From contig JAUIER010000001.1 of assembly GCA_030429765.1 (NCBI GenBank), positions 129,302 to 193,301 on the forward strand: DNA of 64,000 nt, in the 5' to 3' direction. Below are positions 36,182 through 58,270 of the stretch, piece by piece. The position numbers and the translations under genes were made by a program. Source of the stretch: a bacterium (GTDB lineage Bacteria; Omnitrophota; Gorgyraeia; Zapsychrales; Zapsychraceae). Within the stretch, counting starts at the first letter, position 1. Each line of letters opens with the position of its first letter. The notes below the pieces were generated by a model. It saw only the letters and a program-made list of their open reading frames with translations. It had not been told where the DNA came from and searched no databases.

Positions 36182-38095
36182 ATGGGGAAAAAATTCATTG
36201 TCAGAGTGCAAAATCAGTTTATAGTTTGTCTATGCCTTTCGCTGTTTTTTGTCAGCCGTCCCGCAGATGTTCTCGCCGAAAGTAATCCCGCCTCGGCCAA
36301 TTCAATAAAAAAAATACAACTGGATCCAATCATCGTCACAGCCCGACGTGTTTTCTCGGAAAGCGACAGCATTGCCGAAGATGTGGTGATCTATACAGCG
36401 GACGATCTTCACAAGATCGGGGCCCGCGATCTCGGCCAGGCGCTGCAGCATATTCCCGGCGTGGATGTCAGCGTGCGAACACAATTCGGTCAGGCCACCT
36501 CCGTATCGATCCAGGGTTCCGCCTCGCGTCAGGTGTTGGTCATGGTCGACGGAGTTCCTTTCAATACGCAGCTATCCGGTCAGGCCAATCCGACTCGCAT
36601 TCCCGTCGAGCACATCAAACAAATCGAGGTAATCAAAGGCGCGTCCTCCAGTGTCTGGGGATCCAGCCTCGGCGGAGTGATTAATGTCATCACCAAAAAT
36701 ACCGGTGAGACGGAAATTCCTCAGGGGACATTCACTACAAGTTTTGCCGAGTATCGAACGTTCAAGAACAGTTTAAGTCTGAGCGGAAAGATCGGTCAGC
36801 TCGGATATTTTGTATCCGGCAGCTATCTGGATACCGACGGGCCGATGTCTCATACAGATGTCGAAGAGCTCAAGACATACGCCAAGGTTTCCTATCCGCT
36901 GGGGGATTTAGCGGAGGTGATTGCGTCTTTTGGGTACAGCGGGGCGGATGTCCGTTTCGGTGTCAATCCCAACAACCGGATCATCGGACAGCCATACATT
37001 TCGCGTTACGGACAGATGACATTTCAAAGTGAAGATGAGTATGTGCGTTTTAGGATGTCGTTTAAATACAACGATCAGGACGTCATTACAGACATTTACA
37101 ACGCGTCGACCGGCGCGAATGTATCTTCAACCGTTAGCCGAAATCTGTATAAGGGGTTGAGTTTGAGTTCTGAGTTTGATCTGTTCGATGACGACTTACT
37201 TGTCGTCGGCGCGGATTTTGAATGGCAGCGACTCAAGTCCAATAATTTTCTATCTGAGTCCAAGAGTGTTCATGCTCAGGCGCCGTATATCAATTACCGG
37301 TTGCGTTGGGGGCGCTGGGATTTTATTCCGGGCGTACGGTATGATCACAATCAGCAGTTCGGCGAGCAGACAAGTCCGAGTATCGGGATTGTTCACCGGT
37401 TTAATGACCGTCGGAATACCCGGATCCGGCTGAAGGCGTCGCGCGGGTTTAACGCGCCGCCGCTTTTATGGATCTACAATAATGATCCGGGATTATTTGT
37501 CGGTCCCAATCCGGATTTGAAGCCTGAGCGTTCCGACTCTTATCAGATCGGCGTGACATCCGAGCTGACCGAAAATTTGGATTTGGAATTTAATGTCTTT
37601 CGTGCCGATATCCGGGACGCGATTGATCTGATATTTGATTCAACTAATTTTGTATTTGTTCAGCAAAATTTTGAAAAATTTCGTCGTCAAGGCGCGGAAC
37701 TGCTGGTGGATTATTCTATCAGTCCTGAACTATCCGTATATGCCAGCGGGGCATTTACAGACGTGGAAAACCGCGTGACAGGCAAGACGGTTCGCAGTTC
37801 ATCCGCGGCCCGTCAGCGGTACACGTTCGGTATCCGCTACCTGAACCGACGTCATCTGGGAGTCTATTTGTCCGGTTACTACAAACGATGGAGCTCCTCA
37901 GCAAGTTCACAGCCGAATGATCGTAAACCAATATTTGATCTAAAGCTCACCAAGGAATTCAAAGAGATCAAGGATAAAGTCGATCTAGAAGCGTTTCTCA
38001 TCATTCACAATCTCACCAACAGCAAGTATTGGTCTGTCGTGGATTTTCCATTGCCCAGACGCTATTTTGAGGGGGGAATCTCTCTTAGTTTCTAG
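36182..38095 (+). CDS. TonB-dependent outer-membrane receptor
   Basis: plug-domain signatures (IVTARR, TAxDLxKIGARDLGQAL, IEVIKGASSSVWGSSLGGVINVITK), beta-barrel, C-terminal F. Confidence 0.75.
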   Translation: MGKKFIVRVQNQFIVCLCLSLFFVSRPADVLAESNPASANSIKKIQLDPIIVTARRVFSESDSIAEDVVIYTADDLHKIGARDLGQALQHIPGVDVSVRTQFGQATSVSIQGSASRQVLVMVDGVPFNTQLSGQANPTRIPVEHIKQIEVIKGASSSVWGSSLGGVINVITKNTGETEIPQGTFTTSFAEYRTFKNSLSLSGKIGQLGYFVSGSYLDTDGPMSHTDVEELKTYAKVSYPLGDLAEVIASFGYSGADVRFGVNPNNRIIGQPYISRYGQMTFQSEDEYVRFRMSFKYNDQDVITDIYNASTGANVSSTVSRNLYKGLSLSSEFDLFDDDLLVVGADFEWQRLKSNNFLSESKSVHAQAPYINYRLRWGRWDFIPGVRYDHNQQFGEQTSPSIGIVHRFNDRRNTRIRLKASRGFNAPPLLWIYNNDPGLFVGPNPDLKPERSDSYQIGVTSELTENLDLEFNVFRADIRDAIDLIFDSTNFVFVQQNFEKFRRQGAELLVDYSISPELSVYASGAFTDVENRVTGKTVRSSSAARQRYTFGIRYLNRRHLGVYLSGYYKRWSSSASSQPNDRKPIFDLKLTKEFKEIKDKVDLEAFLIIHNLTNSKYWSVVDFPLPRRYFEGGISLSF

Positions 38096-38267
38096 ATACT
38101 CAGATTTTTAATTTGAGTATTTTGAATGACTTTGAACGCTTTTACATTAGTAGGTAGAAAAAAGTCAGTTATTGACCCATTGAAACCATTACAAAAAGAA
38201 ACAAACAAGGCTAGAGTATGATTAAGCTAGTCAGATCAGCCGGTTAACACACCGAAAATATAAATCG

Positions 38268-39920
38268 ATGTCAAAAGCAGGAATCAGAGTAATGATTATT
38301 TGCAGCCTCCTAGTCATGACAGGTTTGGATCCGGAACACGTCGAGGCCACGGATCGAAGACACTTGGCGACGGCAGAATCCTACCATAAGTCAGGGATGG
38401 GCCAGCCTGTGCCCGGTGGGACTTTAGCATGGGGGACGGTGAATGCCCCATCGATTATCAATCCTGTATTGACTGTCACCAGCGTGTCTTCCTCCTTGCT
38501 GGAGTTGCTTTTTGATTCACTGATAAGACTGGATTATCAGGGAAAGTTGGTTCCGGGCTTGGCCAAGTCGTGGACGGTCTCACCGGACAAGTTGGAGTAT
38601 ACCTTTTATTTGCACGAAAATATCTTTTTTCATGACGGACATCCTCTGACCGCGGAGGATGTCAAATTCACCTTTGAGTTAGTGGAAGATCCGGCGGTGA
38701 GATCTCCGAAGAAGTCCAAGCAGGATGATATCGTTTCCTGGACGATTATAGATCCCTACACATTCAAAATCCGGCTGAGTAAGCCGGCGGAAACAGTTCT
38801 CTATAAATTTACCATCGAAATTTTGCCGAAACATATTTTTGAAACGGAGGATATTCGGCTGTCTCGCTACAACTACGCGCCAATAGGTTCGGGGCCTTAC
38901 AAGTTTAACTCCTGGGATCACGACACCAATCAGATCGAACTGGATGCAAATGAACAATATTTTGAAGGACGGCCTAATATCGACAAAATCATTGTCAAAA
39001 CCTATCAGGACAACACTCAGCTATGGACGGCCTTGATGCGAAATGATGTCGATTTGGTGCTATATCTTAATCCGAATGATTTTGAAATTCTGCGTAAGGA
39101 TGGGGCCTTTAAAACCTATGAAATTGCGTGGGAAATGTATCTCGGAATTGCTTATAACCTGAATGATCCCATCTTAAGTGATCAAAGGATCCGCCGGGCT
39201 ATTGCCAAGAGTGTGGATCGGCGTGCGATTTTAGACCAGGTGGGGATGCCGGGACGAATTGCCAATGGTCCGTTCCATCCGTTGTCCATTGGTTTTAATC
39301 GGGATGTCAAGCCGATAGAATATGATCCAGTTGAGGCGATAAGAAGTCTGGAAGAATTGGGCTGGTCGTCCATGGATTATGACGGGATCAGAATGCGGGG
39401 CGATGAAAAGTTTGTCTTACGTTTGCTTGTTGACGCCAGTGATCGAAATTATATGCGGGTAGCTCAAGTCCTTCGTCAACAGTTGTCAGCGGTGGGCATT
39501 CGTCTGGAGGTTGTCCTCTATGAAGATGAGTCTGAGCTGACGGAAGATTTTCTCTCGATGCATCGACCGCAGGCCTGGCTGCGATTCTTTGACGGAACGG
39601 GCCACGACTACAGCGGTAATGGTCCATTGATGAACTGGTTCGTCGATGAGGGGTCCCTGAATCGTTTGTGGGCCTATTCAGATGACCGAGTGCAGGAAAT
39701 TTATGACCAGGGACGGAACACGACGGACATGATCGTCCGTGACAGATTATACAAGCAAGTACATCAGATTATCTATGACGGTCAGCCGGTGCTCTTTATG
39801 TATTTCCCGACGAGTTATCACGCGGTGTCGAGCCGCATCCACAATACGGACTATTTATTCAATATAAATATGCCTGTAAATGTTATAAAAGATTGGCATA
39901 TTCCGGTAAATTCAAATTAA
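38268..39920 (+). CDS. extracellular solute-binding protein, family 5 (Opp/Dpp/Nik-type peptide/nickel binding)
   Basis: 550 aa, signal peptide, family-5 SBP pattern (GTLAWGTVNAPSIINPVL...LIRLDYQGKLVPGLAKSW); no cognate permease/ATPase genes adjacent. Confidence 0.7.
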   Translation: MSKAGIRVMIICSLLVMTGLDPEHVEATDRRHLATAESYHKSGMGQPVPGGTLAWGTVNAPSIINPVLTVTSVSSSLLELLFDSLIRLDYQGKLVPGLAKSWTVSPDKLEYTFYLHENIFFHDGHPLTAEDVKFTFELVEDPAVRSPKKSKQDDIVSWTIIDPYTFKIRLSKPAETVLYKFTIEILPKHIFETEDIRLSRYNYAPIGSGPYKFNSWDHDTNQIELDANEQYFEGRPNIDKIIVKTYQDNTQLWTALMRNDVDLVLYLNPNDFEILRKDGAFKTYEIAWEMYLGIAYNLNDPILSDQRIRRAIAKSVDRRAILDQVGMPGRIANGPFHPLSIGFNRDVKPIEYDPVEAIRSLEELGWSSMDYDGIRMRGDEKFVLRLLVDASDRNYMRVAQVLRQQLSAVGIRLEVVLYEDESELTEDFLSMHRPQAWLRFFDGTGHDYSGNGPLMNWFVDEGSLNRLWAYSDDRVQEIYDQGRNTTDMIVRDRLYKQVHQIIYDGQPVLFMYFPTSYHAVSSRIHNTDYLFNINMPVNVIKDWHIPVNSN

Positions 39921-39944
39921 TTGGCGAAGGGGGTGAATAAATCA

Positions 39945-40067
39945 ATGGGAGAAATCAAAATTATCAATAAAGGCACCGATGATGTTAATCAAATGGCCGC
40001 CTTAGGCTGCTGTTGGCCGCCGGGCACCGAAACGATGGTGCGACCGAACGAAGAGGAAGCCAAGTAG
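39945..40067 (+). CDS. candidate RiPP precursor peptide (40 aa) MGEIKIINKGTDDVNQMAALGCCWPPGTETMVRPNEEEAK
   Basis: Not in the ORF track (below length cutoff). Strong RBS AAGGGGGTG 9 nt upstream of ATG. Sits 34 nt upstream of the radical-SAM/SPASM gene. Charged leader-like N-half and a Cys-Cys-Trp-Pro-Pro core. Confidence 0.45.
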   Translation: MGEIKIINKGTDDVNQMAALGCCWPPGTETMVRPNEEEAK

Positions 40068-40101
40068 TATTCCATAGATATGCTGGGGCACGATTCTTTT
40101 A

Positions 40102-41550
40102 GTGATCCCGCATAGGCCGACCTCAAAAGAATTTTGCTCCAGCATGTTTACAAATTCTTTATCAAGGAAAGATATGCAATTTTCCAGTCATACTATTATT
40201 GTTGAACAGTATCCTCAGCCCGACGAGCACCTGCTGTACAACACACGGACCCAGGCCCTGGTCAAGATACCGGCCGCTGTTAAGACGGCGATTGAGACAT
40301 ATGACTCGTCGGAAGTCAGCGCGGTATCGCGCTATCAAGAAGATCTGGATGTTCTTTACCGGATGGGTCTGATCGTAAACAACTTGGAGGAAGATCTACA
40401 GAGAATCAAAGATCACATGCGGCAACTGAAATCTTCCGTGGATCGCAAATCATTTCCGGTGACACTGCTGACAACATACGCCTGCAACTTAAAGTGCAGT
40501 TATTGCTTTGAAGAGTCATCGAGGACCAACGAAAAAATGCCGCCGGATACTCAGCAGCAGGCCATGACATGGCTCAAGAGCAAGCTCATCGAACAGCGTT
40601 ATCAGAAACTATATTTGACGTTTTATGGTGGTGAACCATTGGCTAACAAGCCGGCGATTAAAACAATAGCCACTCATATGCAGCAATGGTGCCGCGACAG
40701 GGGAATCGAGTTTAATTTCATGCTGCAGACCAACGGATATCTGATGACGCCTGATTTGATCCGTCAATATCTCAAGCTGGGACTTAATCAAGTCCGAATT
40801 TCCGTTGATGGAGTGGGGCAGGAGCATGATAAGTACCGACCGCTTCGAAAAGGTGGTGGATCATTTGATGTCATCATGAAGAATATCCTTGATTGCTGCG
40901 ACCTGGTCCTCATTGGGATTTCCGTCAGCTATGAAAAAGGCCAGGTTGAAAAGATAGATCGCCTGTTCGATTATCTTGATGATCTAGGTATATTACACAA
41001 GCTCGGGCGGTTTTTATTTTCGCCGATCCACGCGACACTTGGTCCGGAAGGCCATCCGGAGTACATTCAGAATTCCAGCTGTATGTGCAATTATGACGAT
41101 CAGATGCTGGTCGAATCGCAGCGGAAAATAAATCGTTATATGCAGCAACGCGGTTTGCCGATGCGAAGCGGTATGTCCACATCTGTTTGCCCGGTAACGC
41201 GTGATGAAGCAGGAATAACCATCGACCAGAAGGGATATCTTTATAAGTGTAATTCCATGCTTGGTCACAAAGAATTTTCGACAGGACACGTATCGGAAGC
41301 CGAGTACAACGAGCGTCATCAGGAATTCTTGGGGCTGGATGTCTGGAAGCAGTGTCCGGTCGATTGCACGTACATGCCGATGTGCAGCGGCGGCTGCCGG
41401 CTGTCTTCATTTTTGAATAATCAGCATTTTAATCGGCCCACATGCCATAAGCCTTATTTAAATCGTATGGCGAGGGAATTTATCATTAAAGACTATGAAA
41501 GGATTATGACTCAACAAAAGGAGATTCAGCAGGAGCAGATAGTCAGATAA
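40102..41550 (+). CDS. radical SAM / SPASM-domain peptide-modifying enzyme with N-terminal RRE-like extension
   Basis: CNLKCSYCFEE (CX3CX2C); C-terminal auxiliary-cluster cysteines CPVDCTYMPMCSGGCR (SPASM); about 115-aa N-terminal region before the rSAM core. Confidence 0.8.
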   Translation: MIPHRPTSKEFCSSMFTNSLSRKDMQFSSHTIIVEQYPQPDEHLLYNTRTQALVKIPAAVKTAIETYDSSEVSAVSRYQEDLDVLYRMGLIVNNLEEDLQRIKDHMRQLKSSVDRKSFPVTLLTTYACNLKCSYCFEESSRTNEKMPPDTQQQAMTWLKSKLIEQRYQKLYLTFYGGEPLANKPAIKTIATHMQQWCRDRGIEFNFMLQTNGYLMTPDLIRQYLKLGLNQVRISVDGVGQEHDKYRPLRKGGGSFDVIMKNILDCCDLVLIGISVSYEKGQVEKIDRLFDYLDDLGILHKLGRFLFSPIHATLGPEGHPEYIQNSSCMCNYDDQMLVESQRKINRYMQQRGLPMRSGMSTSVCPVTRDEAGITIDQKGYLYKCNSMLGHKEFSTGHVSEAEYNERHQEFLGLDVWKQCPVDCTYMPMCSGGCRLSSFLNNQHFNRPTCHKPYLNRMAREFIIKDYERIMTQQKEIQQEQIVR

Positions 41551-41565
41551 TCGTCAGGTTGACGT

Positions 41566-43296
41566 ATGTCCTTTACCCGGATCCTGAGGCCCTTTAGCGC
41601 CCGGATACAATGCATTATATTGTGCATTTTTTTCTCAAACGCGATGGTCATGGTGATGCCCTGGGGTATCAAAATGATCGTCGACGGTCTGCAGGCGCGC
41701 GGAGGGATTGAGGTTATCAATTGGGTCGTTGGGGTCATACTCGCGGCTACTATTATCAGGGGTATTCTGAACTATCTGAAAAATGTTTTCAGCCATAGCG
41801 TAGGGGAGCAATTGATATGTCGTATGCGTGAAGAGATTTATGATCACGTCCATCAATTGCCGCTGGCGGAGCTGCAACGGATCACACCGTCGAGGATCCT
41901 GACCCGTCTGACGGGGGACCTGGACAATCTGCGACGATTTTTGTTCTGTGATATTGTCGAGTTTATTTACGGGGCGTTGAGTATCCTCTTGATATTTTCA
42001 ATCCTGATGATTATCAACGCACGTCTGACGTTGGCGGCCTTGCTGTTCTATCCGGTTTTTCTGGTCATGTATTTCCGAAGGATGCCGCTATTAAAACAGC
42101 ATTATCGTGGAATCAGAGAGCATTGGGGAGAAATTTCGTCCCGGATTAACGAAGTCATTCAGGGGATGCCGACCGTCAGAAGTTGCGGGGCCTATCGGCA
42201 CGAAATGGCACGCTTATCGGAACGGCACGGTAATCTCATCGAAGATTCGATGCAGGCGCATCGTCTGAACATTCGGCTGGGCGGACTGGCCGAATTTGCG
42301 TCCACCTTGGGAATTCTGACGGTGCTTTGGCTAGGCTCACGGGATGTACTGGCCCAACGGATGACGGTGGGAGAATTGATTGCGTTCTATTCGTATATCG
42401 GGATGCTGTTCGCGCCGTTGATTCGCATGGTGATGATTAACACGTCATATCAGGAAGCATCGGCGGCGTTGGATCGAATCAATCACATTTTGGAATGTGA
42501 TCGACTGGCTGACGCGGCCAAGCCTCTGGAAGATGATTACCGGTCGGGGGGACGTGTTGTCTTTGACAGTGTCTCATTCGGGTATGATCCGCCGGTGAAT
42601 GTGGTTGAGAATCTGAATTTTTGTATTCAGCCGGGGGAAAATGTGGGTATCGTCGGCGTCAGCGGTGCGGGAAAGAGTACGCTGATCAATTTGCTGCTCG
42701 GGTTTTACCGGCCGCAATCAGGAAAAATCCTGCTGGATGGTCGTACCATCGAAGACATGGGAGCGGCGACGTATCGTCAGCAAATGGCTGTGGTTTTGCA
42801 GGACTCGTATATGTTCAGCGGAACCATCCGTGAGAATATCGCGTACGGACGTCCTGAGGCTGATTTTTTGGAAATCCAGATGGTGGCCGAGATCGCGCAA
42901 ATCGATGACTACATTCGGTCGTTACCTCAGGGGTACGAAACGAAAGTCGGTGAACGCGGCCTGAATCTGTCAGGAGGACAGCGGCAGCGGATGGCTATCG
43001 CGCGGGCATTGCTGCGTAACCCAACGGTGTTGATTCTCGATGAGGCCACGTCCGCGTTGGATGCCATGACCGAAAATCGGGTGCAGCAGGCTCTCAGCCG
43101 CTATATGCGCGGCAAGACCATGATCACGGTGGCGCACCGTTATTCGACGATCATAGAGACGGATCGGATTATGGTGATTGATCGGGGACAAATCGTAGAG
43201 AATGGTACACACGATCAGTTGTTCGGTCTCAAGGGAATATATTACAAGATATACTCGGAACAGTTTAAGGATAACGATATACCAGTACCTTCATAA
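41566..43296 (+). CDS. ABC transporter, fused permease/ATP-binding exporter (no peptidase domain)
   Basis: 6 TM + Walker A GVSGAGKST, signature LSGGQRQR, Walker B LILDEATS. Confidence 0.85.
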   Translation: MSFTRILRPFSARIQCIILCIFFSNAMVMVMPWGIKMIVDGLQARGGIEVINWVVGVILAATIIRGILNYLKNVFSHSVGEQLICRMREEIYDHVHQLPLAELQRITPSRILTRLTGDLDNLRRFLFCDIVEFIYGALSILLIFSILMIINARLTLAALLFYPVFLVMYFRRMPLLKQHYRGIREHWGEISSRINEVIQGMPTVRSCGAYRHEMARLSERHGNLIEDSMQAHRLNIRLGGLAEFASTLGILTVLWLGSRDVLAQRMTVGELIAFYSYIGMLFAPLIRMVMINTSYQEASAALDRINHILECDRLADAAKPLEDDYRSGGRVVFDSVSFGYDPPVNVVENLNFCIQPGENVGIVGVSGAGKSTLINLLLGFYRPQSGKILLDGRTIEDMGAATYRQQMAVVLQDSYMFSGTIRENIAYGRPEADFLEIQMVAEIAQIDDYIRSLPQGYETKVGERGLNLSGGQRQRMAIARALLRNPTVLILDEATSALDAMTENRVQQALSRYMRGKTMITVAHRYSTIIETDRIMVIDRGQIVENGTHDQLFGLKGIYYKIYSEQFKDNDIPVPS

Positions 43297-43298
43297 AA

Positions 43299-45041
43299 AT
43301 GAAAAAGATACAGAACGTAATCAATAAATTATTTCCACGTGAAATTTCACTGCAGATTTTCGTGGTGCTGGCCCTACTGGTTGTTGTTCCATTGGTGCTC
43401 CTGGGTTTACTGTTGATTAACACGAGTCAGAACGCAATTCAGACAACCGTGTTGCGGGATCACCAGGAAGTGGCCACGCACGCGACAGGCGCGGTCAAGG
43501 AGCATGTGCGTGCCGCCCAGGGCACGATGAAATTGACGGCCTCCATACTTGGTGCATTGCATGCGGATCCTTGGCGGCAGGAGACCGTCCTCGTCGAACT
43601 CGCCATGCGAAATTCGTCATTTGAGCGGGTGTCCACCATCGATTTAAACGGGAGAGAGCTGGCGACGTCTTTCCTGGGCTCGCCATTAAGGGATATCTCG
43701 GACAGAGAGGGATTCAAAGCGGCGGCACGGGGTGAAGCGTATATCGCTAAGGTGCGTATTTCGCCTGAACATGAGCCGTTCGTCGAACTTTACGAACCCA
43801 TTCTTCAGTTTGGACGCGTTTCAGGGGTTCTCTCAGCAAGGTTTAATCTGCGAAGTGTCTGGAATATTGTCGACGGGATACATTTTGGTGAAACCGGACA
43901 TGCCTACTTGATCGACGGGGAACGCCGGATTATCGCCCATCCGGACAAGAAGCGGGTACTTCAAACCGTCGGAATGGACTTTTCGGAGCCCACCAGGGGA
44001 GAGTCGCAGCATGAAAACCTGTTTAATCCCAATGACTGGCTGTTGTCCCGGGCATCGATTCCCGAACTAAACTGGACCCTGGTGATCCTTCAGCCTAAAC
44101 GGGAAGCATACACATTTATATCAACGATGCGCGATCAATCATTGATTCTGATCTTATTGGCGATTGTCGCGACGATTGTTATCAGCCGGTTACTCTCCAA
44201 ATTCATGAGCCGTCCACTTCGGACATTAATCGAAGCGACCGAACATGTTGCTAACGAAGATTTTGATTATCGATTGCGAATTCCCCGTCGGGATGAGTTT
44301 GGTAAATTATTTTACGCCTTTAACAAGATGATCGCTCGTATTGATGAAGGGCGGCGGATGCAAAAGCTGTCTACCATCGGTAGTGCCGCGACCGCCATTG
44401 CCTATGAGCTGAAAAATTCATTAGTCGCCGTGGATACGTACATCCAGTTACTGCCCGAAAGGCATAAAGATAGACAGTTTATCGAAGATTTTTCGCGGAC
44501 AGTCCCGCAGGAATTAAATTCCTGGAAGAATATGCTTGTGAATATTACCGACTACGCGAAGTTTTTGCAGTTTAGCAAACACGATGTGGATATCAATGCG
44601 TTGGTCCGGGATGTGGCCACTTTGGCGAAACAGCGGGCCAAACAAAAAGGGGTTGATTTTGAGATGCATATGGATCAGTCATTGCCGTGCATCAACGGAA
44701 ATGAGGCCAAGCTTAAGCAGGTGTTTTTGAACCTGATCAATAACGCCTTGGCCGCCACGCCGGAGGGAGGCAAAATTTGCTTTTCCACAGACCTGGTGGG
44801 AGCGTCGGATGATCCCAATTGTTCGCACGTCCGCGTGACGGTTAAGGATACGGGTGAGGGGCTGTCATCGGATGAGTTAAAGAAAGTTTTTGAACCATTT
44901 TATACCACTAAACATGATGGATTAGGATTAGGACTCTCCATTAGCAATGAGATCGTGATGGCCCATGGAGGCCGCATGGATGTGGAGAGCCAAAAACAAA
45001 AAGGGGCGGCATTTACCGTACAAATACCAACAGCAGTTTAA
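43299..45041 (+). CDS. membrane sensor kinase of NtrB-like type with periplasmic sensor domain and HAMP; phospho-acceptor His replaced by Tyr
   Basis: 2 TM flanking a ~230-aa periplasmic domain; HAMP; DHp box reads AIAYELKNSL instead of AHEIRNPL; intact N box (NLINNALAAT), G1 (DTGEGL), F (FEPFYTTK), G2 (GLGLGLSIS). Confidence 0.7.
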   Translation: MKKIQNVINKLFPREISLQIFVVLALLVVVPLVLLGLLLINTSQNAIQTTVLRDHQEVATHATGAVKEHVRAAQGTMKLTASILGALHADPWRQETVLVELAMRNSSFERVSTIDLNGRELATSFLGSPLRDISDREGFKAAARGEAYIAKVRISPEHEPFVELYEPILQFGRVSGVLSARFNLRSVWNIVDGIHFGETGHAYLIDGERRIIAHPDKKRVLQTVGMDFSEPTRGESQHENLFNPNDWLLSRASIPELNWTLVILQPKREAYTFISTMRDQSLILILLAIVATIVISRLLSKFMSRPLRTLIEATEHVANEDFDYRLRIPRRDEFGKLFYAFNKMIARIDEGRRMQKLSTIGSAATAIAYELKNSLVAVDTYIQLLPERHKDRQFIEDFSRTVPQELNSWKNMLVNITDYAKFLQFSKHDVDINALVRDVATLAKQRAKQKGVDFEMHMDQSLPCINGNEAKLKQVFLNLINNALAATPEGGKICFSTDLVGASDDPNCSHVRVTVKDTGEGLSSDELKKVFEPFYTTKHDGLGLGLSISNEIVMAHGGRMDVESQKQKGAAFTVQIPTAV

Positions 45042-45059
45042 TCCAGACGGGGAAATAAT

Positions 45060-45785
45060 ATGTTATGTGACAAGATCATGGTGGTCGACGACGACCCGCG
45101 AATTATCGCCGGTATCAAACTGGTCCTTAACGAGTACGAGATTGTCGGGTTTCGGGATGGCCGAAGCGCGCTTGAATATTTATCCAAGCCCAACGAAATC
45201 CGCTTTGTATGCCTGGACGTGTATCTCAACAATGAAAATGGTTTGGACATCCTCAAAGAGATGAAGCGCATCAATCCGAATCTGATTGTCCTGGTGATGA
45301 CGGCCTTCGGATCGATGGATGTGGCGGTTCAGGCCTTGCGGTATCACGCCGATGACTTTATAGAAAAACCGTTCGATGTCGAGGATCTCAGACAGAAAGT
45401 TAAAAATCACATCAAGAACACATCGTTTCTGGACACCATGGCCAATGACCAGGATCATCGTATTGAGCGGATCCGGACGTTTGTGGAACGAAACTACACG
45501 AATGTGTCGTTAGAAACAATTGCCAACGAAATGTGTTTGAGTGAAAAATATGTCAGCCGGATGTTCAAAAAGAAAAATAAGACCAGTTTCCGTACATACA
45601 AACTGGACTTGAAGATTGAACGGGCCAAAAAGTTGCTGGAAGAGACATCCTATAACGTGACCCAAATATCCGAACAATTGGGATATCAGAATCCGGAATC
45701 ATTTATGCGCATCTTCCGCAAACTAGCAGGGATGACACCGACGCAGTACCGTAAGTCCGTCAAGAATCAAAAGGCGGGGTCCTGA
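45060..45785 (+). CDS. response regulator with CheY-like receiver and C-terminal AraC-family HTH
   Basis: VVDDD, FVCLDVYL (phospho-Asp), VMTAFG, FIEKPF; AraC HTH region (LSEKYVSRMFKK...GYQNPESFMRIFRKLAGMTPTQYRK). Confidence 0.8.
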   Translation: MLCDKIMVVDDDPRIIAGIKLVLNEYEIVGFRDGRSALEYLSKPNEIRFVCLDVYLNNENGLDILKEMKRINPNLIVLVMTAFGSMDVAVQALRYHADDFIEKPFDVEDLRQKVKNHIKNTSFLDTMANDQDHRIERIRTFVERNYTNVSLETIANEMCLSEKYVSRMFKKKNKTSFRTYKLDLKIERAKKLLEETSYNVTQISEQLGYQNPESFMRIFRKLAGMTPTQYRKSVKNQKAGS

Positions 45786-45786
45786 T

Positions 45787-46170
45787 ATGGAAGACAAGAT
45801 TTTGGTGATCGACGCTCATCCGGTATACATCCAAAAGTTGGACGCCTTCGTGCGCGGTTTGACATTTCAACATATCCGTTTGGCGGCTTCGGCCCATGAA
45901 GGGTTGAGCCTGGCCGAATCCTTTCAGCCCGATATTGTCCTGATGAGCGGGATTTATCCGGACCGGGACAGCCGCGAGACGCTGCGTGAACTCAAGCGGA
46001 TCTGTCCGCAGGCGCGGGTCATCGTGCAGGTAGGGTTGCTCACCGAGCACGACGCCATCGAAGCGTTCAAAGACGCAGGCGCCATGGCCGTCTTAATCCG
46101 CCTGGAAAAAAATCTAGCACCTCTCCAGGATGCCCTGGAGCAGGCCCGCCTGCAGAATTCTCCTAAATAA
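45787..46170 (+). CDS. receiver-like single-domain protein with degenerate phosphorylation site
   Basis: CheY-like fold by spacing (KILVIDAHP, DIVLMSGIYP) but the Asp57-equivalent aligns with Ser and the second acidic-pocket Asp is Ala. Confidence 0.5.
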   Translation: MEDKILVIDAHPVYIQKLDAFVRGLTFQHIRLAASAHEGLSLAESFQPDIVLMSGIYPDRDSRETLRELKRICPQARVIVQVGLLTEHDAIEAFKDAGAMAVLIRLEKNLAPLQDALEQARLQNSPK

Positions 46171-46410
46171 CGATATCCGAAACACTTGCCAAAAACTGGC
46201 TGCATGGGCTGTTGGCAGCCGGAATGACCGTATTGGTCCCTCTGTGTCCCGGACAACTCACCTGTGTCGTCTTGACGATCGCGAAATATATTGCATACTT
46301 TATCTAACGATGCGGTGCAAGGCAGCAGCGAGAACCGCACAACGAATATAGACTTATTCAGGCATACCGTATTCTCAGCTTATGTCGACTCAGCTTGCCT
46401 GAATATTTGA

Positions 46411-46458
46411 GGGATCGTTCCTGATTTTGCACAAAAAAAGGAACGGTCCCTTTTTTTA
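46411..46458 (+). terminator. strong Rho-independent terminator in intergenic region, not adjacent to any annotated CDS end
   Basis: GGGATCGTTCC-N18-GGAACGGTCCC followed by TTTTTTTATTT. Confidence 0.5.
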
Positions 46459-46555
46459 TTTGCTATACTATACCCCGTCAGGAAGCGTTTTATTTGAGAG
46501 AAGGGATACAGGATAGTATCCGCTATATTTAATCGACTAGTCAGAAAGATGTAAT

Positions 46556-47062
46556 ATGCCAAAGAAAGATAAGACTATTTGGGTTACGGTTGAAATTCCT
46601 AAAGGAAGCCGTAACAAGTATGAATTTGATAAGCTCCGCAAGGTCATTAAGTTTGACCGCATGTTGTTTTCAGCGGTTCATTACCCGAGTGATTACGGAT
46701 TTATCCCCGACACGCTCGCGTTGGACGGAGATCCGCTGGACGTTCTCGTTTTGGTCACGGAACCCACGTTTCCCGGGTGTATTATCGAAGCCCGGCCGAT
46801 CGGGTTATTTAAAATGACGGATGAAAAAGGGCCAGATGAAAAAATATTGTGTGTCCCCGTGAGCGATCCGCTCTGGAATCACATTCGCGAGCTGGACAAA
46901 GTTCCGCCGCATTTACTACGCGAGATTGAACATTTCTTCAATGTTTATAAGGATCTGGAAGACAAGAAAGTCAGCGTCGAAGGTTGGGCTGACCGAAGTG
47001 CCGCGTACACCATTATAGATGAGGCGCTTGAGCGTTATCAGGATTCGTTGAGCTCCCATTAG
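46556..47062 (+). CDS. ppa: inorganic pyrophosphatase (family I)
   Basis: 168 aa; family I PPase signature region DGDPLDVLVL and overall collinearity with soluble PPases. Confidence 0.9.
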   Translation: MPKKDKTIWVTVEIPKGSRNKYEFDKLRKVIKFDRMLFSAVHYPSDYGFIPDTLALDGDPLDVLVLVTEPTFPGCIIEARPIGLFKMTDEKGPDEKILCVPVSDPLWNHIRELDKVPPHLLREIEHFFNVYKDLEDKKVSVEGWADRSAAYTIIDEALERYQDSLSSH

Positions 47063-47073
47063 TTTTAAATTTT

Positions 47074-49155
47074 ATGCCGCAAAAATTTCTCATTCCAAGC
47101 TTGATAGCCGTTCTGTTGCTGAGCGGCTGTTCAACCTTACCGACATTCTCTCCCCGAGTTCAAAAGCGAACAGCCGCTTTTTGGCTGCAGCAATCCGTGA
47201 ACACTGAAATTGTCGACGCCCGCGTGGCAGACGAGAAAGTCTGGTTGACTTATCACGTTTTTACGGCTGATAGTGATACGGCACAGTTGTTTTATGCACG
47301 CAGTGATCGGATTCAGGCGAATGATGATCCCAATCACGGGCTTGTCATTAGGGATCGTCCTATGAAGTTTCTCTCACCGCAGGATTGGACTGCGGGTAGC
47401 GAAGACGGCGTGCCGGTGGCGATATGGTCGTCGTCGCGCTGGGCTGAATTTATCGGTGAATTTGCCGATGCGATGGCTCCAAGCGATATCAATCATGGCG
47501 TCGTCGTCCGTGACGGGTTACATGAACTGATTTTCTTTCGCGATGTGGACGGACAGACTTCAATTACGGATATCAAAAACAAGCCTGGCCATGTCGCAAT
47601 TGATCAGGTGCTCAGTCAGTCGCAGTATGCTGAAAAGATATCGGCTTCCCTACAGCAGTTTGTGAGTGCCAGATCCATTGCCGATCGTCGATTTATCGTC
47701 GTGGCCGATGACCGGCGTTCGGACGGCCGGATGTTTACCTATATTGATATGGATCGCGGTGCGGGACTGGGGTTGACCGTCCCGGCAGCCAAACAATCCA
47801 AGGGTATCGGCGGCTCGGTCGCCGGAGGGGTCAAGACCGCGGATCAGCTGATTCTCGACGGACAGATGGTTGGAATTGCGACCCGGCCGGTCTCATCAAT
47901 GTTCCGTCTGTATTCGTGGGCGAAGGACACCACGCTGCATACCATTAAACCGCGTCGGATGGTCCAGCAAATCGTGCCGAGCGGACCCCCGCCGCCGATC
48001 GCTCAGCGTGAGGGAATGGATCTCGATGAATTTGACCGCGAACTGGATCGTCTGATCGGGCGTCCGGCAACGAAGGGAACGGTGAAATTTTATATCGGTG
48101 GCGATCAGTATTTTCCCCGCCAGATCGAGGCATTTCAAAATGCCCGCGAATCCATCGATGTACGGATCTTTATTTTCGACAATGATGATTACGCGGTGAA
48201 GATCGCGGACGTCCTCAAACAACGCTCGCGCGATGGCGTTCGGGTCCGGGTGTTGATCGACGGCATCGGGCGGATTATGGGCGAGGGTTCAGTTCCCGAG
48301 GGAATGCCGGCCGGATTTAAACCGCCGGCGTCGATGGTCAAATACCTGAAGAAAGGATCCAATATCGAGGTCCGTGTCCGTCCCAACGCGTGGTTCAAGG
48401 CCGATCATACCAAGGCCATTACGATTGACGGCAAGCTCGCTTATACCGGCGGGATGAATATCGGCCGGGAATACCGTTATGACTGGCATGATCTGATGAT
48501 GCGGGTGGAGGGCTCGATTGTCGACGAGATTCAGCATGAATTTAATATCGCCTGGGCACATGCCGGGCATCTAGGGGATATCGCGTATCTGGCACAGAAA
48601 GTTAACGGCGTCAAGCGGCATGACAGCGTGAATGAAGGGATCAGGATCCGTCCGTTGTACACGCGGGCGGATAATCCGCAAATCTTTAACGCGCAAATGG
48701 CCGCGATTCGCAAGGCCAGGAACTATATCTACGCGGCCAATGCCTATTTCTCCGATCCGAATATCATCAGCGAGCTCATCAAGGCGCGCCGGCGCGGTGT
48801 CGATGTCAGGGTTATCCTGCCGGTCAACGGGAATCATGAGATCATGAACAAGAATAATATCGTGATTGCGAACCGGCTTTTTGCGAACGGCGTGAAGGTT
48901 TATTTTTATCCCGGCATGAGCCATGTTAAGGCGGCGGTTTACGACGGATGGTTATGCACCGGTTCAGCCAATTTTGACAAGCTCAGTTTTATTGACAATC
49001 TGGAATTCAATCTCGCCATATCCGATCCCGCCACTGTTGATCAAATCGTCGAGGATTTATTCGAAGCCGACTTTAAAAAATCCGCGTTGATGACGGCGCC
49101 TTTAAAGAGCAATATCCGAAATCTGCTGGCCACGGTGCTGGCCGGTCAGCTCTAG
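47074..49155 (+). CDS. phospholipase D / cardiolipin synthase-family lipoprotein with ~330-aa N-terminal extension
   Basis: lipobox LLSGCS; two HKD motifs HTKAITIDGKLAYTGGMNIG and HVKAAVYDGWLCTGSANFD. Confidence 0.75.
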   Translation: MPQKFLIPSLIAVLLLSGCSTLPTFSPRVQKRTAAFWLQQSVNTEIVDARVADEKVWLTYHVFTADSDTAQLFYARSDRIQANDDPNHGLVIRDRPMKFLSPQDWTAGSEDGVPVAIWSSSRWAEFIGEFADAMAPSDINHGVVVRDGLHELIFFRDVDGQTSITDIKNKPGHVAIDQVLSQSQYAEKISASLQQFVSARSIADRRFIVVADDRRSDGRMFTYIDMDRGAGLGLTVPAAKQSKGIGGSVAGGVKTADQLILDGQMVGIATRPVSSMFRLYSWAKDTTLHTIKPRRMVQQIVPSGPPPPIAQREGMDLDEFDRELDRLIGRPATKGTVKFYIGGDQYFPRQIEAFQNARESIDVRIFIFDNDDYAVKIADVLKQRSRDGVRVRVLIDGIGRIMGEGSVPEGMPAGFKPPASMVKYLKKGSNIEVRVRPNAWFKADHTKAITIDGKLAYTGGMNIGREYRYDWHDLMMRVEGSIVDEIQHEFNIAWAHAGHLGDIAYLAQKVNGVKRHDSVNEGIRIRPLYTRADNPQIFNAQMAAIRKARNYIYAANAYFSDPNIISELIKARRRGVDVRVILPVNGNHEIMNKNNIVIANRLFANGVKVYFYPGMSHVKAAVYDGWLCTGSANFDKLSFIDNLEFNLAISDPATVDQIVEDLFEADFKKSALMTAPLKSNIRNLLATVLAGQL

Positions 49156-49222
49156 CCCGAAATCCGCCAATCCACGCCTGATTGCCGTTGAAATCACTCA
49201 TCACTTTTGATAATATTGAGGT

Positions 49223-50518
49223 ATGAAATTCTGCGCAGATGTTCATGTCCATTCCTATTATTCCCGCGCGACCAGCAAAAATCTCAATCTTGAATATCTG
49301 AATTTATGGGGACAGATCAAAGGGGTCGATGTCATCGGAACCGGAGATTTTACCCATCCGGCATGGTTTGCCGAGATCCGGGACAAACTCGAACCCGCCG
49401 AGGAAGGGCTGTTCCGTCTGAAGCCGGAATTTGCCGCGGTGACCCGTGATCAAGTTCCCCGTGCCTGCCAGCGTGATATACGGTTTATGCTCACCGTTGA
49501 GATTTCCAACATTTACAAACGTCTGGATCGTGTTCGAAAAGTTCACAACTGTGTATTCGCCCCAAGTTTTGACGCCGCCGGTCGTATTCGTCAGTCCCTG
49601 GATAAGATCGGTAATCTTAAATCCGATGGTCGTCCGATTTTGGGATTGGATTCGAGAGATCTATTGGAGATTGTTTTGGAATCTGATCCATTGAGCTATT
49701 TGATCCCGGCGCATATCTGGACGCCATGGTTTTCTGCGATGGGATCCAAGAGTGGTTTTGATCGGATGACGGACTGTTTTGGCGATCTATCCGATCATAT
49801 TTTTGCGGTGGAAACTGGTCTGTCTTCGGACCCGCCGATGAATTGGCGGCTCTCGCAACTCGATCCATATGTGCTTGTCTCGAATGGCGACGCGCATTCT
49901 CCCGGTAAACTGGGACGTGAAGCGACGCTGTATGATACCGAACTGTCTTACCCGGCAATCTATGACGCTCTGAAAAATCATAACACCAATCCCGGTCTGA
50001 TCGGCACGATCGAGTTTTTCCCCGAGGAAGGCAAATATCATTATGACGGACATCGGGCGTGCCAAACGCGCATGCATCCGCGCGATACAAACAAGCACGA
50101 CGGCAAGTGTCCGGTCTGTCAGAAGCCGGTCACCGTCGGTGTGATGGCGCGGGTCGAAGAGTTGGCGGATCAGCCGGAGGGACGTAAGTCGCCGAACTGG
50201 CGGCCGTTTTTCAGTTTGATCCCTTTACCGGAGATCATCTCCGAGGTCGTCGGGGTCGGTCCGAACAGCAAGCGTGTTCAAAAGATCTATTTTGAAATGC
50301 TCAACGCCTTGGGCAGTGAGATGTTTATCCTGATGGACTGTCCGATTGATCAGATTCGGCGTCATTCCGAAGGGCTGATTGCGGAGGCGATTCAGCGCAT
50401 GCGAACCGGTGATGTTAATATCGCCTCAGGATACGATGGAGAGTTTGGAACGATTCATATATTTTCAGACCAAGATCGGGAGGCGCATGCCGCGGCCGAA
50501 CAGCTTACCTTGTTTTAA
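49223..50518 (+). CDS. PHP-domain protein, endonuclease Q-like
   Basis: N-terminal ADVHVHSYYSRATS (PHP metal-binding His motif), later H/D ligands, and a CPVCQKP zinc-finger-like element, as in EndoQ/TIGR00375-type proteins (from memory). Confidence 0.5.
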   Translation: MKFCADVHVHSYYSRATSKNLNLEYLNLWGQIKGVDVIGTGDFTHPAWFAEIRDKLEPAEEGLFRLKPEFAAVTRDQVPRACQRDIRFMLTVEISNIYKRLDRVRKVHNCVFAPSFDAAGRIRQSLDKIGNLKSDGRPILGLDSRDLLEIVLESDPLSYLIPAHIWTPWFSAMGSKSGFDRMTDCFGDLSDHIFAVETGLSSDPPMNWRLSQLDPYVLVSNGDAHSPGKLGREATLYDTELSYPAIYDALKNHNTNPGLIGTIEFFPEEGKYHYDGHRACQTRMHPRDTNKHDGKCPVCQKPVTVGVMARVEELADQPEGRKSPNWRPFFSLIPLPEIISEVVGVGPNSKRVQKIYFEMLNALGSEMFILMDCPIDQIRRHSEGLIAEAIQRMRTGDVNIASGYDGEFGTIHIFSDQDREAHAAAEQLTLF

Positions 50519-51029
50519 TAAACTTTTCGGATGCGGACTTGTTTTGATGCTGATAAGTTTGACGGGATGTGGGCGGACGGTCTTGAAGTCACATGAATGG
50601 CACACGTCGCCGGAGCACTGGCCTCAATCCAGGATTTATCACACACCTTTTCAATCGGAATTTGCATCACGCATTAAATTGGATCAGGCTCCGTGGCCCG
50701 GTAATCAGGCCGGCATTCGTTCGCCTAATCAGGCCTACCGGTTTTGGACAGGGCCGGTCCATCAATCAGTGAATGGATGGTGGTCGACGACGATCTATGT
50801 TGATCATGAGCGCGATCACGCATTGACAATACAAATCATCGACCACAATCAATGGAATGTTCAGGCCGCATGGATCAATGAAAAATTATTGTATGTGTCG
50901 GTCTGGTGGGGAAGGATTGTCGGCAGTTATTTTATCGTCGATGTTGAACGTGAAAAGATCATATTCAAGGAAATGATGCATGACGGACACATTGCCTATC
51001 AACAATTCCGTAACGCCGCAGCTCAATGA
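50487..51029 (+). CDS. hypothetical lipoprotein (start uncertain)
   Basis: ORF overlaps ends of both neighbours; lipobox-like LISLTGCG; Trp/His-rich. Confidence 0.35.
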   Translation: MPRPNSLPCFNKLFGCGLVLMLISLTGCGRTVLKSHEWHTSPEHWPQSRIYHTPFQSEFASRIKLDQAPWPGNQAGIRSPNQAYRFWTGPVHQSVNGWWSTTIYVDHERDHALTIQIIDHNQWNVQAAWINEKLLYVSVWWGRIVGSYFIVDVEREKIIFKEMMHDGHIAYQQFRNAAAQ

Positions 51030-54750: not shown

Positions 54751-54786
54751 GGCCCGGTTTACATATGTAAGCCGGGCCTTTTTTGT
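54751..54786 (+). terminator. Rho-independent terminator of the csp gene
   Basis: GGCCCGG-loop-CCGGGCC followed by TTTTTTGTG. Confidence 0.6.
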
Positions 54787-54850
54787 GTCTGCTATCCTCA
54801 TGTTGAAGTCTGGCGCCACTTGCACTATAATAGGTAGAAAAGGGGGGAGC

Positions 54851-55279
54851 ATGCGAAACTTTATTATGTTGTGTTTGATGTCCGGGTTGTGCCTGAGCGC
54901 CGGACCCGCCAATGCCGCGCTCATACGGACTACCGAACTCGAAGCATCCGCACCGGAGGCCCGTGATATTATCCGGATCGCCAAATTCAAGAAAGACAAG
55001 AAACGGACATCATCGTTTTCCAAATCCAAAAACCGCAAAAAACTCAAGAAACGAAATCAAGCAAGCCACAAGAAAAAAGCCAAGACCCGGGCGAGGGACA
55101 AGAGAAATACAGCCACAGGTCTGCTTGACGATTCGTCCCATCGCGATCGAAGATTAAAGCGGAAGCCCAGATCGTTCAGCCGAAAGGACAAGCTTGATTT
55201 GATTGACGGACGCCGATATTACCAGTTGGACGGTTATCATCGAAAGAAAAGGTCCCAAGAATCTTTTAAAAAGAACTAA
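54851..55279 (+). CDS. secreted poly-basic (Lys/Arg-rich) protein 1
   Basis: SD AAAGGGGGGAG; signal peptide MRNFIMLCLMSGLCLSAGPANA; remainder about 40% K/R. Confidence 0.45.
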   Translation: MRNFIMLCLMSGLCLSAGPANAALIRTTELEASAPEARDIIRIAKFKKDKKRTSSFSKSKNRKKLKKRNQASHKKKAKTRARDKRNTATGLLDDSSHRDRRLKRKPRSFSRKDKLDLIDGRRYYQLDGYHRKKRSQESFKKN

Positions 55280-58265: not shown

Positions 58266-58270
58266 TACGT

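Follow-up and report, generated by a model that had tools for sequence, protein, structure and literature searches.

The DivL protein of Caulobacter crescentus and other alpha-proteobacteria possesses a tyrosine (Tyr-550; PDB 4q20) at the phospho-accepting histidine position in DHp helix 1, and retains the neighborhood of the H-box as well as the N, G1, F, and G2 boxes (PMC4211667). The His-to-Tyr state of this protein abolishes kinase activity but leaves binding to the regulator undisturbed (PMC4211667). The histidine pseudokinase PsmA of Streptomyces also is devoid of the H-box histidine, which is replaced by tyrosine in the S. scabies ortholog, and belongs to an old, conserved pseudokinase family with hybrid kinase architecture in which the H-box position varies and the D/E-x-x-T/N motif is lost (PMC12963549). 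ChrS is an evolved pseudokinase that acts via cross-phosphorylation by HrrS (PMC9491836). Kinase activity similarly is lost in laboratory His-to-Ala mutants of NtrB-type HisKA kinases, including EnvZ, HK853, and CrdS of M. xanthus. The H371A mutation in CrdS, whose H-box reads LAHEIKNPL, eliminates all kinase activity and reduces phosphatase activity only modestly, whereas Asn-375 four residues downstream is essential for the latter, which matches the role of the Asn residue of the HisKA E/D-x-x-T/N motif in phosphatase activity (PMC3510030). Not every His mutant keeps its phosphatase activity, however, as PleC-H610A loses both activities (PMC3510030).

The sensor kinase gene considered here (43299..45041, + strand, as for all features described below) is located in a window of 64,000 nucleotides, which is the entire stretch of DNA that was analyzed, and specifies a protein of 580 amino acids in a fully intact open reading frame. 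Pfam matches, a Kyte-Doolittle profile, and an AlphaFold2 model (mean pLDDT 79.6) placed two transmembrane helices around a dCache domain, followed by HAMP, DHp, and CA (HATPase_c) domains. The first predicted transmembrane helix spans approximately residues 17–40 (43347..43418), where a Kyte-Doolittle segment at residues 11–44 coincides with a modeled helix at 16–86, and the second spans approximately residues 281–299 (44139..44195) in a hydrophobic segment at 277–303. The dCache_1 sensor domain (residues 45–263; 43431..44087; PF02743, 69 bits, E 5.6e-19) is flanked by the two helices and is therefore predicted to be extracytoplasmic. The HAMP domain (residues 298–349; 44190..44345; PF00672, 45 bits) precedes a HisKA-like two-helix DHp domain (approximately residues 350–425; 44346..44573) that was aligned to the DHp domains of ZraS, ThkA, and FixL, and whose helices were modeled at residues 333–388 and 392–420. 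The HATPase_c catalytic domain (residues 467–578; 44697..45032; PF02518, 88 bits) includes the N (N478, N482), G1 (D517–G521), F (F531), and G2 (G541–G545) boxes. Residues N478, N482, F531, and G543–L546 occupy invariant columns of the family and are unchanged, and the D517-G-x-G521 pattern of the G1 box was read directly from the protein sequence. The protein has no receiver domain of its own according to Pfam.

The DNA sequence GCC ATT GCC TAT GAG CTG AAA AAT TCA TTA specifies A-I-A-Y-E-L-K-N-S-L, in which the TAT codon (44403..44405) encodes Tyr-369. In phmmer alignments this segment was placed opposite gvaheirnpl of ZraS (PDB 9jfj, E 1.7e-29) and rvaheirnpi of ThkA (PDB 3a0r, E 3.8e-29), and FixL chimeras produced the same register, with the alignments to ZraS, ThkA, and FixL spanning residues 348–578 of the kinase. 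Thus, Tyr-369 is positioned on the phospho-accepting histidine, as the preliminary description had proposed, and its reading of the codon as a single transition from CAT and of the HAMP domain and N, G1, F, and G2 boxes as intact also was upheld by the DNA sequence, the Pfam matches, and the unchanged invariant columns. The adjacent E370-L-K-N373 sequence (44406..44417), which provides the acidic residue and Asn of the E/D-x-x-T/N motif, is intact in the family alignment: the E370 column is near-invariant, columns L371–S374 are invariant, and all of these residues are unchanged. The Pfam HisKA profile matched the kinase over profile positions 6–62 with a score of 14.5 bits (cutoff, 26.9), compared to 21.9 bits for an in silico Y369H revertant and 27.1 bits for a sister protein, P0002. 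Among the features that characterize the HisKA type, the alignable H-box on DHp helix 1, the HATPase_c domain with its four boxes, and the E-x-x-N motif are present, and tyrosine occupies the column of the phospho-accepting histidine. Judged from the sequence, the kinase is of HisKA type (NtrB/AtoS/ZraS-like) by descent, yet does not possess the catalytic residue that the type demands. His-389 in a PERH sequence was considered as a substitute phospho-acceptor and was rejected, as this column is histidine in only 44 of 82 relatives.

ZraS, AtoS, ThkA, and FixL are the closest solved or curated relatives, and match the kinase over the full extent of its DHp and CA domains. The NCBIfam AtoS model scored 205 bits over residues 352–578 against a cutoff of 646, and no equivalog-level NCBIfam match was obtained for the kinase or for the maturase and precursor peptide encoded nearby. 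The protein differs from ZraS/AtoS-type kinases in its dCache sensor domain, its AraC-type rather than sigma-54-type partner, and the missing histidine. DivL (4q20) was matched far more weakly (E 6.6e-14) than were ZraS and ThkA (~1e-29), and has a cytoplasmic multi-PAS arrangement in contrast to the TM-dCache-TM-HAMP organization here. In addition, the tyrosine is conserved throughout DivL orthologs, whereas Tyr-369 is a singleton, and DivL has no phosphatase activity, whereas the E-x-x-N motif of the kinase is canonical, for which reason phosphatase activity may persist in the latter. On these comparisons the kinase resembles DivL but falls outside the DivL-type pseudo-histidine kinases. Nor does its sequence conform to the PsmA type: it has no receiver domain, the motif that is lost in PsmA is intact, and the histidine was lost in one lineage.

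Conservation at the Tyr-369 column was assessed in the wider kinase family, which resides mostly in Omnitrophota metagenome-assembled genomes (MAGs) and shares a dCache-HAMP-HELKNSL-HATPase_c layout in which ELKNS is near-invariant to invariant. Full-length relatives numbered 86 (33–78% identity, E 1e-98 to 1e-297). The preliminary description had named histidine in all orthologs as one half of its own refuting condition, and this half was borne out: histidine was present in 119 of 119 retrieved homologs, and tyrosine was a singleton among the 120 sequences. The closest homolog, P0002 from locus L002, is 78% identical, is located in the same gene order, and has the His codon CAC. As every homolog that was examined has histidine, including that in the syntenic sister locus, a conserved Tyr-type or pseudokinase family is ruled out for the sequences retrieved. 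At 90% identity, the protein clusters with no other sequence. Searches of a genome contig collection with the exact DNA pattern around codon 369, in which the variable base was set to N, produced no matches, which places the genome outside the species representatives of that collection, and the matches listed in a family-profile search of genome contigs were generic kinases that fit the F-box pattern rather than family members. Scans of metagenome contigs with the protein alone or with its alignment to P0002 yielded a nearest relative of only 43% identity and therefore no independent sample of the species or clade. The family alignment of 84 members contains 24 strictly invariant columns, from which the kinase departs solely at residue 369. 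Seven singleton deviations were observed at these columns (0.35% per sequence per column), so that ~0.3 events are expected family-wide at any single one of them. A sporadic change in the histidine column is, at this frequency, uncommon but not extraordinary.

The sequence with Tyr-369 is known from one population sample only. The window sequence and the Logan assembly of SRR24442552 are 100% identical over 12,973 bp. The Logan contig and the NCBI MAG contig (295,771 bp) that agree here were, in all likelihood, built from one set of reads and, for this reason, a consensus error or non-fixed allele is still conceivable. In that case the T at 44403 would be a base-calling or consensus error or a low-frequency variant, and the population would encode histidine and a normal kinase. 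The difference of one base from a single sampled population fits this explanation, as do the singleton deviations at invariant columns in ~7% of the family members from MAGs and metagenomes, some of which could be errors. However, the two contigs are fully concordant across 13 kb, the GCC-TAT-GAG context contains no homopolymer and is not error-prone, and further derived changes (A351G, E355Q, S420A) occurred at conserved DHp positions in the same lineage. A single wrong base would not be sufficient to account for the data, because nearly the whole of the DHp divergence falls on the window branch. An artifact or minor allele is therefore considered doubtful, and pure sequencing error at 44403, which the preliminary description had listed as an option, is less likely in view of the identical second assembly and the additional DHp changes. 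A systematic artifact was rejected separately, as a second, PhoR-like kinase in the window (58271–60064) retains a normal H-box (SHELRTP).

The kinase accumulated amino acid changes in the window lineage at ~1.5–1.9 times the rate in the sister lineage. When polarized, 53 changes were derived in the window lineage compared to 28 in the sister (p = 0.007), and the asymmetry with 40 outgroups gave p = 0.053. Neighboring genes were symmetric, with window:sister counts of 25:24 for an ABC exporter, 4:3 for the AraC-type regulator, and 7:13 for a second receiver protein, and the kinase differed from these genes when pooled (Fisher p = 0.025). The DHp branch length was 0.139 for the window lineage versus ~0 for the sister, based on nine informative DHp sites, and there were nine window-specific deviations compared to three sister-specific deviations in columns with at least 80% conservation in the family. 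These rate statistics are modest and rest on one sister sequence. Synonymous sites relative to the sister locus are saturated (pS 0.73–0.83; overall dN/dS ~0.04–0.06) and the substitution therefore cannot be dated.

As observed, Tyr-369 is present in the assembled sequence, is unique among the relatives found, and is accompanied by intact catalytic and docking elements elsewhere in the protein. Rather than defining a new class of enzyme, the His-to-Tyr change most likely is a recent point mutation that destroyed kinase activity. Our preferred reading, which we hold with reasonable though far from complete confidence, is that a real, lineage-specific C-to-T change produced a kinase-dead, signal-blind sensor that probably retains phosphatase activity and does not belong to a DivL-like family. 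Of the three options in the preliminary description, the strain or lineage mutation is thus favored, and the pseudokinase option, taken as a conserved family, is excluded by the uniform histidine column of the retrieved homologs. The ancestor would have been a canonical membrane-bound NtrB/AtoS/ZraS-like HisKA kinase that signaled to an AraC-type regulator, until a single transition (CAY to TAT) in this lineage alone replaced the phospho-accepting His-369 with tyrosine. The altered protein would be expected to fold, dimerize, bind ATP, and dock its regulator, for which DivL provides a model of a His-to-Tyr protein that dimerizes and binds its regulator but has no kinase activity. The regulator presumably would remain unactivated because the phospho-His intermediate could not form. 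A reduced phosphatase activity probably is preserved, as E370-x-x-N373 is intact. Here CrdS is the apt comparison: its H-box is nearly the same (LAHEIKNPL versus IAYELKNSL), and its phosphatase depends on the Asn residue four positions downstream and is only modestly reduced without the histidine (PMC3510030). In that case, however, a laboratory alanine was introduced, whereas the natural, bulky tyrosine could hinder regulator docking more. The pathway as a whole would then be stuck in the off state, as a natural variant that is blind to its signal. The event appears young relative to the split from the sister lineage, but probably is not brand new, as the DHp helix of the window lineage already shows signs of relaxed constraint. 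Agr-defective isolates of S. aureus are spontaneous loss-of-function variants with a silenced peptide-sensing two-component circuit that often are recovered from natural populations (PMC5654930). In functional terms they are analogous to a signal-blind variant, although AgrC is an HPK10 protein and thus of an unrelated kinase family.

Alternatively, the H369Y change may have been fixed and then maintained by selection. The protein would then be an incipient, kinase-dead pseudokinase that is kept for a dedicated phosphatase function, for sensing or scaffolding of the phosphorylated regulator, or for its part in a heterodimer, with the phosphoryl group supplied by another donor, and would represent a convergent and very young analog of DivL. 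Preservation of the open reading frame, of all ATP-binding boxes, and of E-x-x-N accords with this possibility, as does the partner regulator, which still is 96.7% identical to that of the sister lineage. On a rough estimate, neutral decay that produced the 25–39 excess missense changes would have generated 2.6–5.9 disabling stops or frameshifts, and none was observed (P 0.003–0.075). DivL, ChrS (PMC9491836), and PsmA (PMC12963549) are precedents. Nevertheless, the tyrosine occurs in a single sequence that has no conservation support, the surplus of changes need not have any connection to residue 369, as many of them are in the sensor domain (31:20, window:sister), and the 64-kb window has no second cognate kinase except for the PhoR-like protein, which is tied to pst genes. 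Such a pseudokinase is therefore regarded as a minority possibility. The narrower proposal that Tyr-369 was fixed by selection as the first step of pseudokinase birth, in which one transition turned the periplasmic-sensing kinase of a peptide (RiPP) cassette into a protein with phosphatase activity only, or into a scaffold to which the phosphorylated regulator binds, and in which the DHp helix already is re-adapting, is slightly more tentative again. If the tyrosine is fixed and selected, the gene would offer a rare snapshot of how DivL-like pseudokinases begin; if it is a sporadic inactivating mutation, the event is ordinary.

The intact ATP site and the adjacent catalytic Glu-370 might also suggest that the CA domain phosphorylates Tyr-369, and that phosphotyrosine then signals or is relayed. 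DivL was described originally as a tyrosine kinase. However, on general chemical grounds, a phosphotyrosine ester is, with its low group-transfer potential, too poor a donor to yield the acyl-phosphate of a receiver Asp. DivL itself does not autophosphorylate, and kinase activity was obtained only with the Y550H revertant (PMC4211667). Moreover, no relative conserves the tyrosine and hence there is no trace of an evolved tyrosine chemistry. Nothing supports a Tyr phosphorelay, and the Tyr-autophosphorylating kinase that had been suggested for the gene is highly improbable. In annotation, the gene should be flagged as a histidine kinase homolog that has no phospho-acceptor and probably is kinase-dead, and deductions about the regulation of this organism should leave it out of the set of working sensors.

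The genes that surround the kinase appear to form a signaling circuit with it. The cognate response regulator (45060..45785) comprises a receiver and an AraC-type helix-turn-helix domain with an intact phosphorylation pocket, including the acidic VVDDD, the phospho-Asp in CLDVY, the Thr in MTAFGS, and the Lys in IEKPF, residues that are conserved in six loci. The single-domain receiver-like protein that follows (45787..46170) has Ser at the phospho-Asp position (DIVLMSG), which is conserved in seven loci and marks the protein as a pseudo-receiver. An ABC exporter with fused permease and ATPase domains (41566..43296) ends 2 nt before the kinase start. The exporter and kinase genes probably share a transcript, with translation of the two coupled, and in the sister locus their counterparts overlap by 4 nt. 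Operon boundaries are drawn from gene spacing only, as consensus scans for promoters (18 versus 15.9) and terminators (14 versus 10.4) performed no better than with shuffled sequences. Further upstream are a radical SAM/SPASM peptide maturase (40174..41550; alternative GTG start at 40102; Pfam Radical_SAM and Fer4_12), for which the best NCBIfam match was TIGR04280, the geopeptide radical SAM maturase (284 bits, under the cutoff of 400), and a putative precursor peptide of 40 amino acids, MGEIKIINKGTDDVNQMAALGCCWPPGTETMVRPNEEEAK (39945..40067), with a CC[WF]P[PV]G motif conserved in seven loci. An SBP_bac_5 periplasmic solute-binding protein (38268..39920) and a TonB-dependent receptor (36182..38095) occupy positions that are conserved across cassette loci. 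The cassette thus consists of the TonB receptor, SBP_bac_5 protein, CC[WF]PPG precursor, radical SAM/SPASM maturase, ABC exporter, kinase, AraC-type regulator, and pseudo-receiver. Literature searches for CCWPPG, geopeptide, or TIGR04280 matched only unrelated papers on gageopeptides, and the CC[WF]PPG/radical SAM cassette is widely conserved in Omnitrophota-type MAGs and apparently undescribed. This peptide cassette, which the kinase family marks, is a more useful by-product of the analysis, and of greater interest, than the Tyr-369 substitution itself. In the window and eight other loci, the radical SAM gene, with or without the ABC exporter, was situated upstream of the kinase, and the AraC-type regulator and small receiver genes were situated downstream. 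In locus L093, the radical SAM and ABC exporter genes are retained and the downstream region is different.

The sensor kinase is encoded by an open reading frame at 43299-45041 on the + strand and is 580 amino acids in length. Pfam profiles locate dCache_1 at residues 45-263, HAMP at 298-349 and HATPase_c at 467-578. Strongly hydrophobic segments at residues ~17-40 and ~281-299 lie one on either side of the Cache domain, an arrangement that predicts a sensor domain outside the cytoplasm. In an AlphaFold2 model generated from an input alignment of 32 sequences (mean pLDDT 79.6), the second HAMP helix continues as helix 1 of the phosphotransfer (DHp) domain to form a long helix at 333-388, after which come another helix (392-420) and a catalytic domain of alpha/beta fold. 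The H-box is specified by nucleotides 44394-44423 (GCC ATT GCC TAT GAG CTG AAA AAT TCA TTA), and the TAT codon at 44403-44405 places Tyr at position 369, as read in the preliminary description. The H-box alignment proposed there was borne out by phmmer searches of all PDB chains: residues 348-578 align over their full length with ZraS (9jfj, E 1.7e-29) and likewise with ThkA (3a0r, E 3.8e-29) and FixL chimeras, with aiayelknsl positioned on gvaheirnpl and Tyr369 in the phospho-His column. The best NCBIfam models were AtoS and ZraS, with scores far under the equivalog cutoffs. By descent the protein is an ordinary member of the HisKA-type kinase family that departs only in the catalytic His.

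A search space of ~5.8 billion protein clusters yielded 86 full-length family members with 33-78% identity, ranked ahead of generic kinases. When the best 120 sequences were aligned, all 119 others had His in the Tyr369 column, which answers in the negative the earlier question of whether Tyr is conserved in orthologues. P0002, the nearest relative at 78% identity, is encoded on a Logan contig of ERR14224706 with unchanged gene order; its H-box is AIAHELKNSL with CAC as the His codon. A family alignment of 84 sequences has 24 columns without any variation among the other members, and the window kinase departs at only one of these, H369Y. Residues N478, N482, F531, G543-L546 and G558 and the ELKNS string are unchanged, in agreement with the previous description of the N, F and G2 elements as intact. 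Singleton changes at invariant columns also occur in six other family members (7 events), and with ~0.3 events expected per invariant column over the whole kinase family, a chance substitution of the His column is unusual but not extraordinary.

A sequencing or assembly error was considered as the source of the Tyr codon. A 13.7-kb Logan contig (run SRR24442552) is 100% identical to window positions 38069-51041, and a 295,771-bp NCBI contig likewise carries the kinase protein. As the NCBI and Logan assemblies probably share reads, their agreement excludes a peculiarity of one assembler but leaves room for an error in the reads. No homopolymer surrounds the TAT codon, and the H-box is normal (SHELRTP) in a PhoR-like kinase at 58271-60064, which neighbors pst genes and an OmpR-type regulator. 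Further samples of the source species were not found in the genome, metagenome or protein-cluster collections searched. The Tyr codon is genuinely present in the sequence as assembled.

Differences between the window and the sister sequence P0002 were polarised with four outgroup loci. The kinase displayed 53 window-derived versus 28 sister-derived changes (p=0.007), an asymmetry that, like those that follow, is modest and based on one sister sequence. The flanking genes were symmetric (window:sister 25:24 for the ABC exporter, 4:3 for the AraC-type response regulator and 7:13 for the small receiver), and the kinase differed from these pooled neighbors in a Fisher test (p=0.025). With 40 outgroups instead, the kinase split was 53:34 (p=0.053) and that of the DHp portion was 8:1. 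Overall, three-point branch lengths were 0.156 for the window and 0.104 for the sister; for DHp they were 0.139 and ~0, respectively. Where at least 80% of the family agree on a residue, nine private deviations mark the window kinase (W17S, L103M, P106S, S150A, A351G, E355Q, H369Y, S420A and I560M) and three mark the sister. Pfam HisKA scores were 27.1 bits for the sister DHp domain, 21.9 for an in silico Y369H revertant and 14.5 for the actual sequence. These modest figures all point the same way, suggesting that the phosphotransfer domain of the window lineage has shifted or come under looser constraint; one erroneous base would not yield the DHp pattern of extra changes. A decaying pseudogene was rejected by an overall dN/dS of about 0.04 versus the sister, although dS is saturated, and by the lack of stops or frameshifts. 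Were the 25-39 excess missense changes purely neutral, a rough estimate that assumes an indel-to-substitution ratio of 0.05-0.1 gives 2.6-5.9 expected stops or frameshifts and a probability of ~0.003-0.075 that none is present, as observed. Because of this saturation, the substitution cannot be dated. H369Y is best read as a point substitution confined to one lineage of an otherwise conventional kinase; it does not define a novel type of enzyme.

As a donor, phosphotyrosine is ill suited to acyl-phosphate formation, and no relative possesses Tyr. DivL, the closest precedent for Tyr at the phospho-His site, shows no autophosphorylation (PMC4211667), and the Tyr-autophosphorylating variant considered previously is unsupported, as is phosphorelay through Tyr. 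Membership of a DivL-type group was rejected: the Tyr is conserved across DivL orthologues but is unique here, DivL has a multi-PAS architecture whereas the window kinase is TM-dCache-HAMP, and the latter is closer in sequence to ordinary kinases than to DivL. In PsmA-type pseudokinases the residue at the His site varies and the D/E-x-x-T/N motif is gone (PMC12963549); the window kinase retains this motif. In CrdS (H-box LAHEIKNPL), H371A abolishes autophosphorylation and slows regulator dephosphorylation modestly (half-life 2.6 min, compared with <1 min for the wild-type kinase and 53.5 min for the regulator by itself) and N375A abolishes phosphatase activity; in contrast, PleC H610A lacks both kinase and phosphatase activities (PMC3510030). 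The natural Tyr550 of DivL abrogates kinase activity with regulator binding undisturbed (PMC4211667). Taken with this biochemistry, the intact E370 and N373 residues suggest that Tyr369 would produce a kinase-dead protein that still binds ATP and docks its regulator. Reduced phosphatase activity probably would be kept, holding the AraC-type regulator unphosphorylated, and the net outcome would be a signal-blind variant. The likeness to agr-defective variants, which arise frequently in Staphylococcus aureus (PMC5654930), is one of outcome. On the evidence of one genome, the gene may be either a transient or segregating loss-of-function allele or a retained phosphatase or scaffold; the reading frame, intact despite accelerated change, lends the latter some weight.

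The kinase gene starts 2 nt past the ABC exporter stop codon and is followed after 18 nt by the AraC-type response regulator gene (45060-45785) and, after a further 1 nt, by the small receiver-like gene. In the AraC-type regulator, the acidic pocket, the phospho-Asp and the Thr and Lys residues are all preserved, and identity to the sister copy is 96.7%. The neighborhood is conserved in nine loci with 34-100% kinase identity, mostly from Omnitrophota MAGs (window 36182-46170, also L083-L086 and L091-L093). The conserved order is a TonB-dependent receptor (36182-38095), an SBP_bac_5 binding protein (38268-39920), a 31-40-amino-acid reading frame that is a putative precursor peptide (39945-40067), a radical-SAM/SPASM maturase (40174-41550), often an ABC exporter (41566-43296), the kinase, the AraC-type regulator and the small receiver. 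A leader, M-E-I-I-N-x-G-T-D-D-L, is common to the small reading frames, as is a core of the form CC[WF]P[PV]G; the precursor had no NCBIfam match and CCWPPG was not found in the literature searched. The maturase is nearest to TIGR04280 (geopeptide maturase), with a score under the cutoff. Its start is ambiguous: the longest reading frame begins at GTG 40102, but the public gene call and orthologue lengths (443-472 amino acids) fit ATG 40174. This conserved neighborhood suggests a role for the kinase in regulating, or in responding to, a modified-peptide system. In combining a TonB receptor with a periplasmic binding protein, an exporter and a Cys-rich peptide, the cassette may resemble methanobactin-type metallophore loci.

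In the small receiver (45787-46170, + strand), Ser takes the place of the phospho-accepting Asp (PD-[IL]-[VI]-[LIM]-[ML]-S-[GA]) in 7/7 loci, and the N-terminal pocket holds a single acidic residue (ID-x-HPVY), again in 7/7. The orthologues are at L002 (the P0002 locus) 4115-4498, L083 9535-9903, L084 9757-10137, L085 9614-10012, L086 9584-9985 and L091 9488-9859; in L092 its place is taken by a double receiver whose Asp residues are normal. The gene therefore specifies a conserved pseudo-receiver in the same operon as the kinase. The peptide cassette and pseudo-receiver are more promising leads than the Tyr substitution. Identity to the sister lineage is 96.7% for the AraC-type regulator and 95.5% for the downstream pyrophosphatase, but only 76-78% for the kinase, ABC exporter and pseudo-receiver. 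As synonymous sites are saturated throughout this comparison, constraint differs greatly among genes of one operon.

Elsewhere in the window, a Pho regulon block spans 57456-63625. A profile search covered the PhoR-like kinase alone. Inspection of the translations assigned 57456-58265 to an OmpR/PhoB-type regulator, 60362-61672 to a possible porin-like protein of the outer membrane, 61741-62628 to a PstS-like binding protein and 62693-63625 to a PstC-like permease. A 1581-amino-acid protein encoded at 28652-33397 (+ strand), with multiple PKD domains, a LamG-like domain, a galactose-binding-like domain and a right-handed beta-helix, is probably a large protein that is secreted or displayed at the surface. 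Three small reading frames in a row at 54785-56281 (164-167 amino acids) have C-terminal tails that are extremely rich in Lys and Arg; two of the three resemble each other in a signal-like segment at the N terminus and in a motif that reads approximately TSGK...G...I.Y..I.SI.KGL, and the set look like tandem paralogues.
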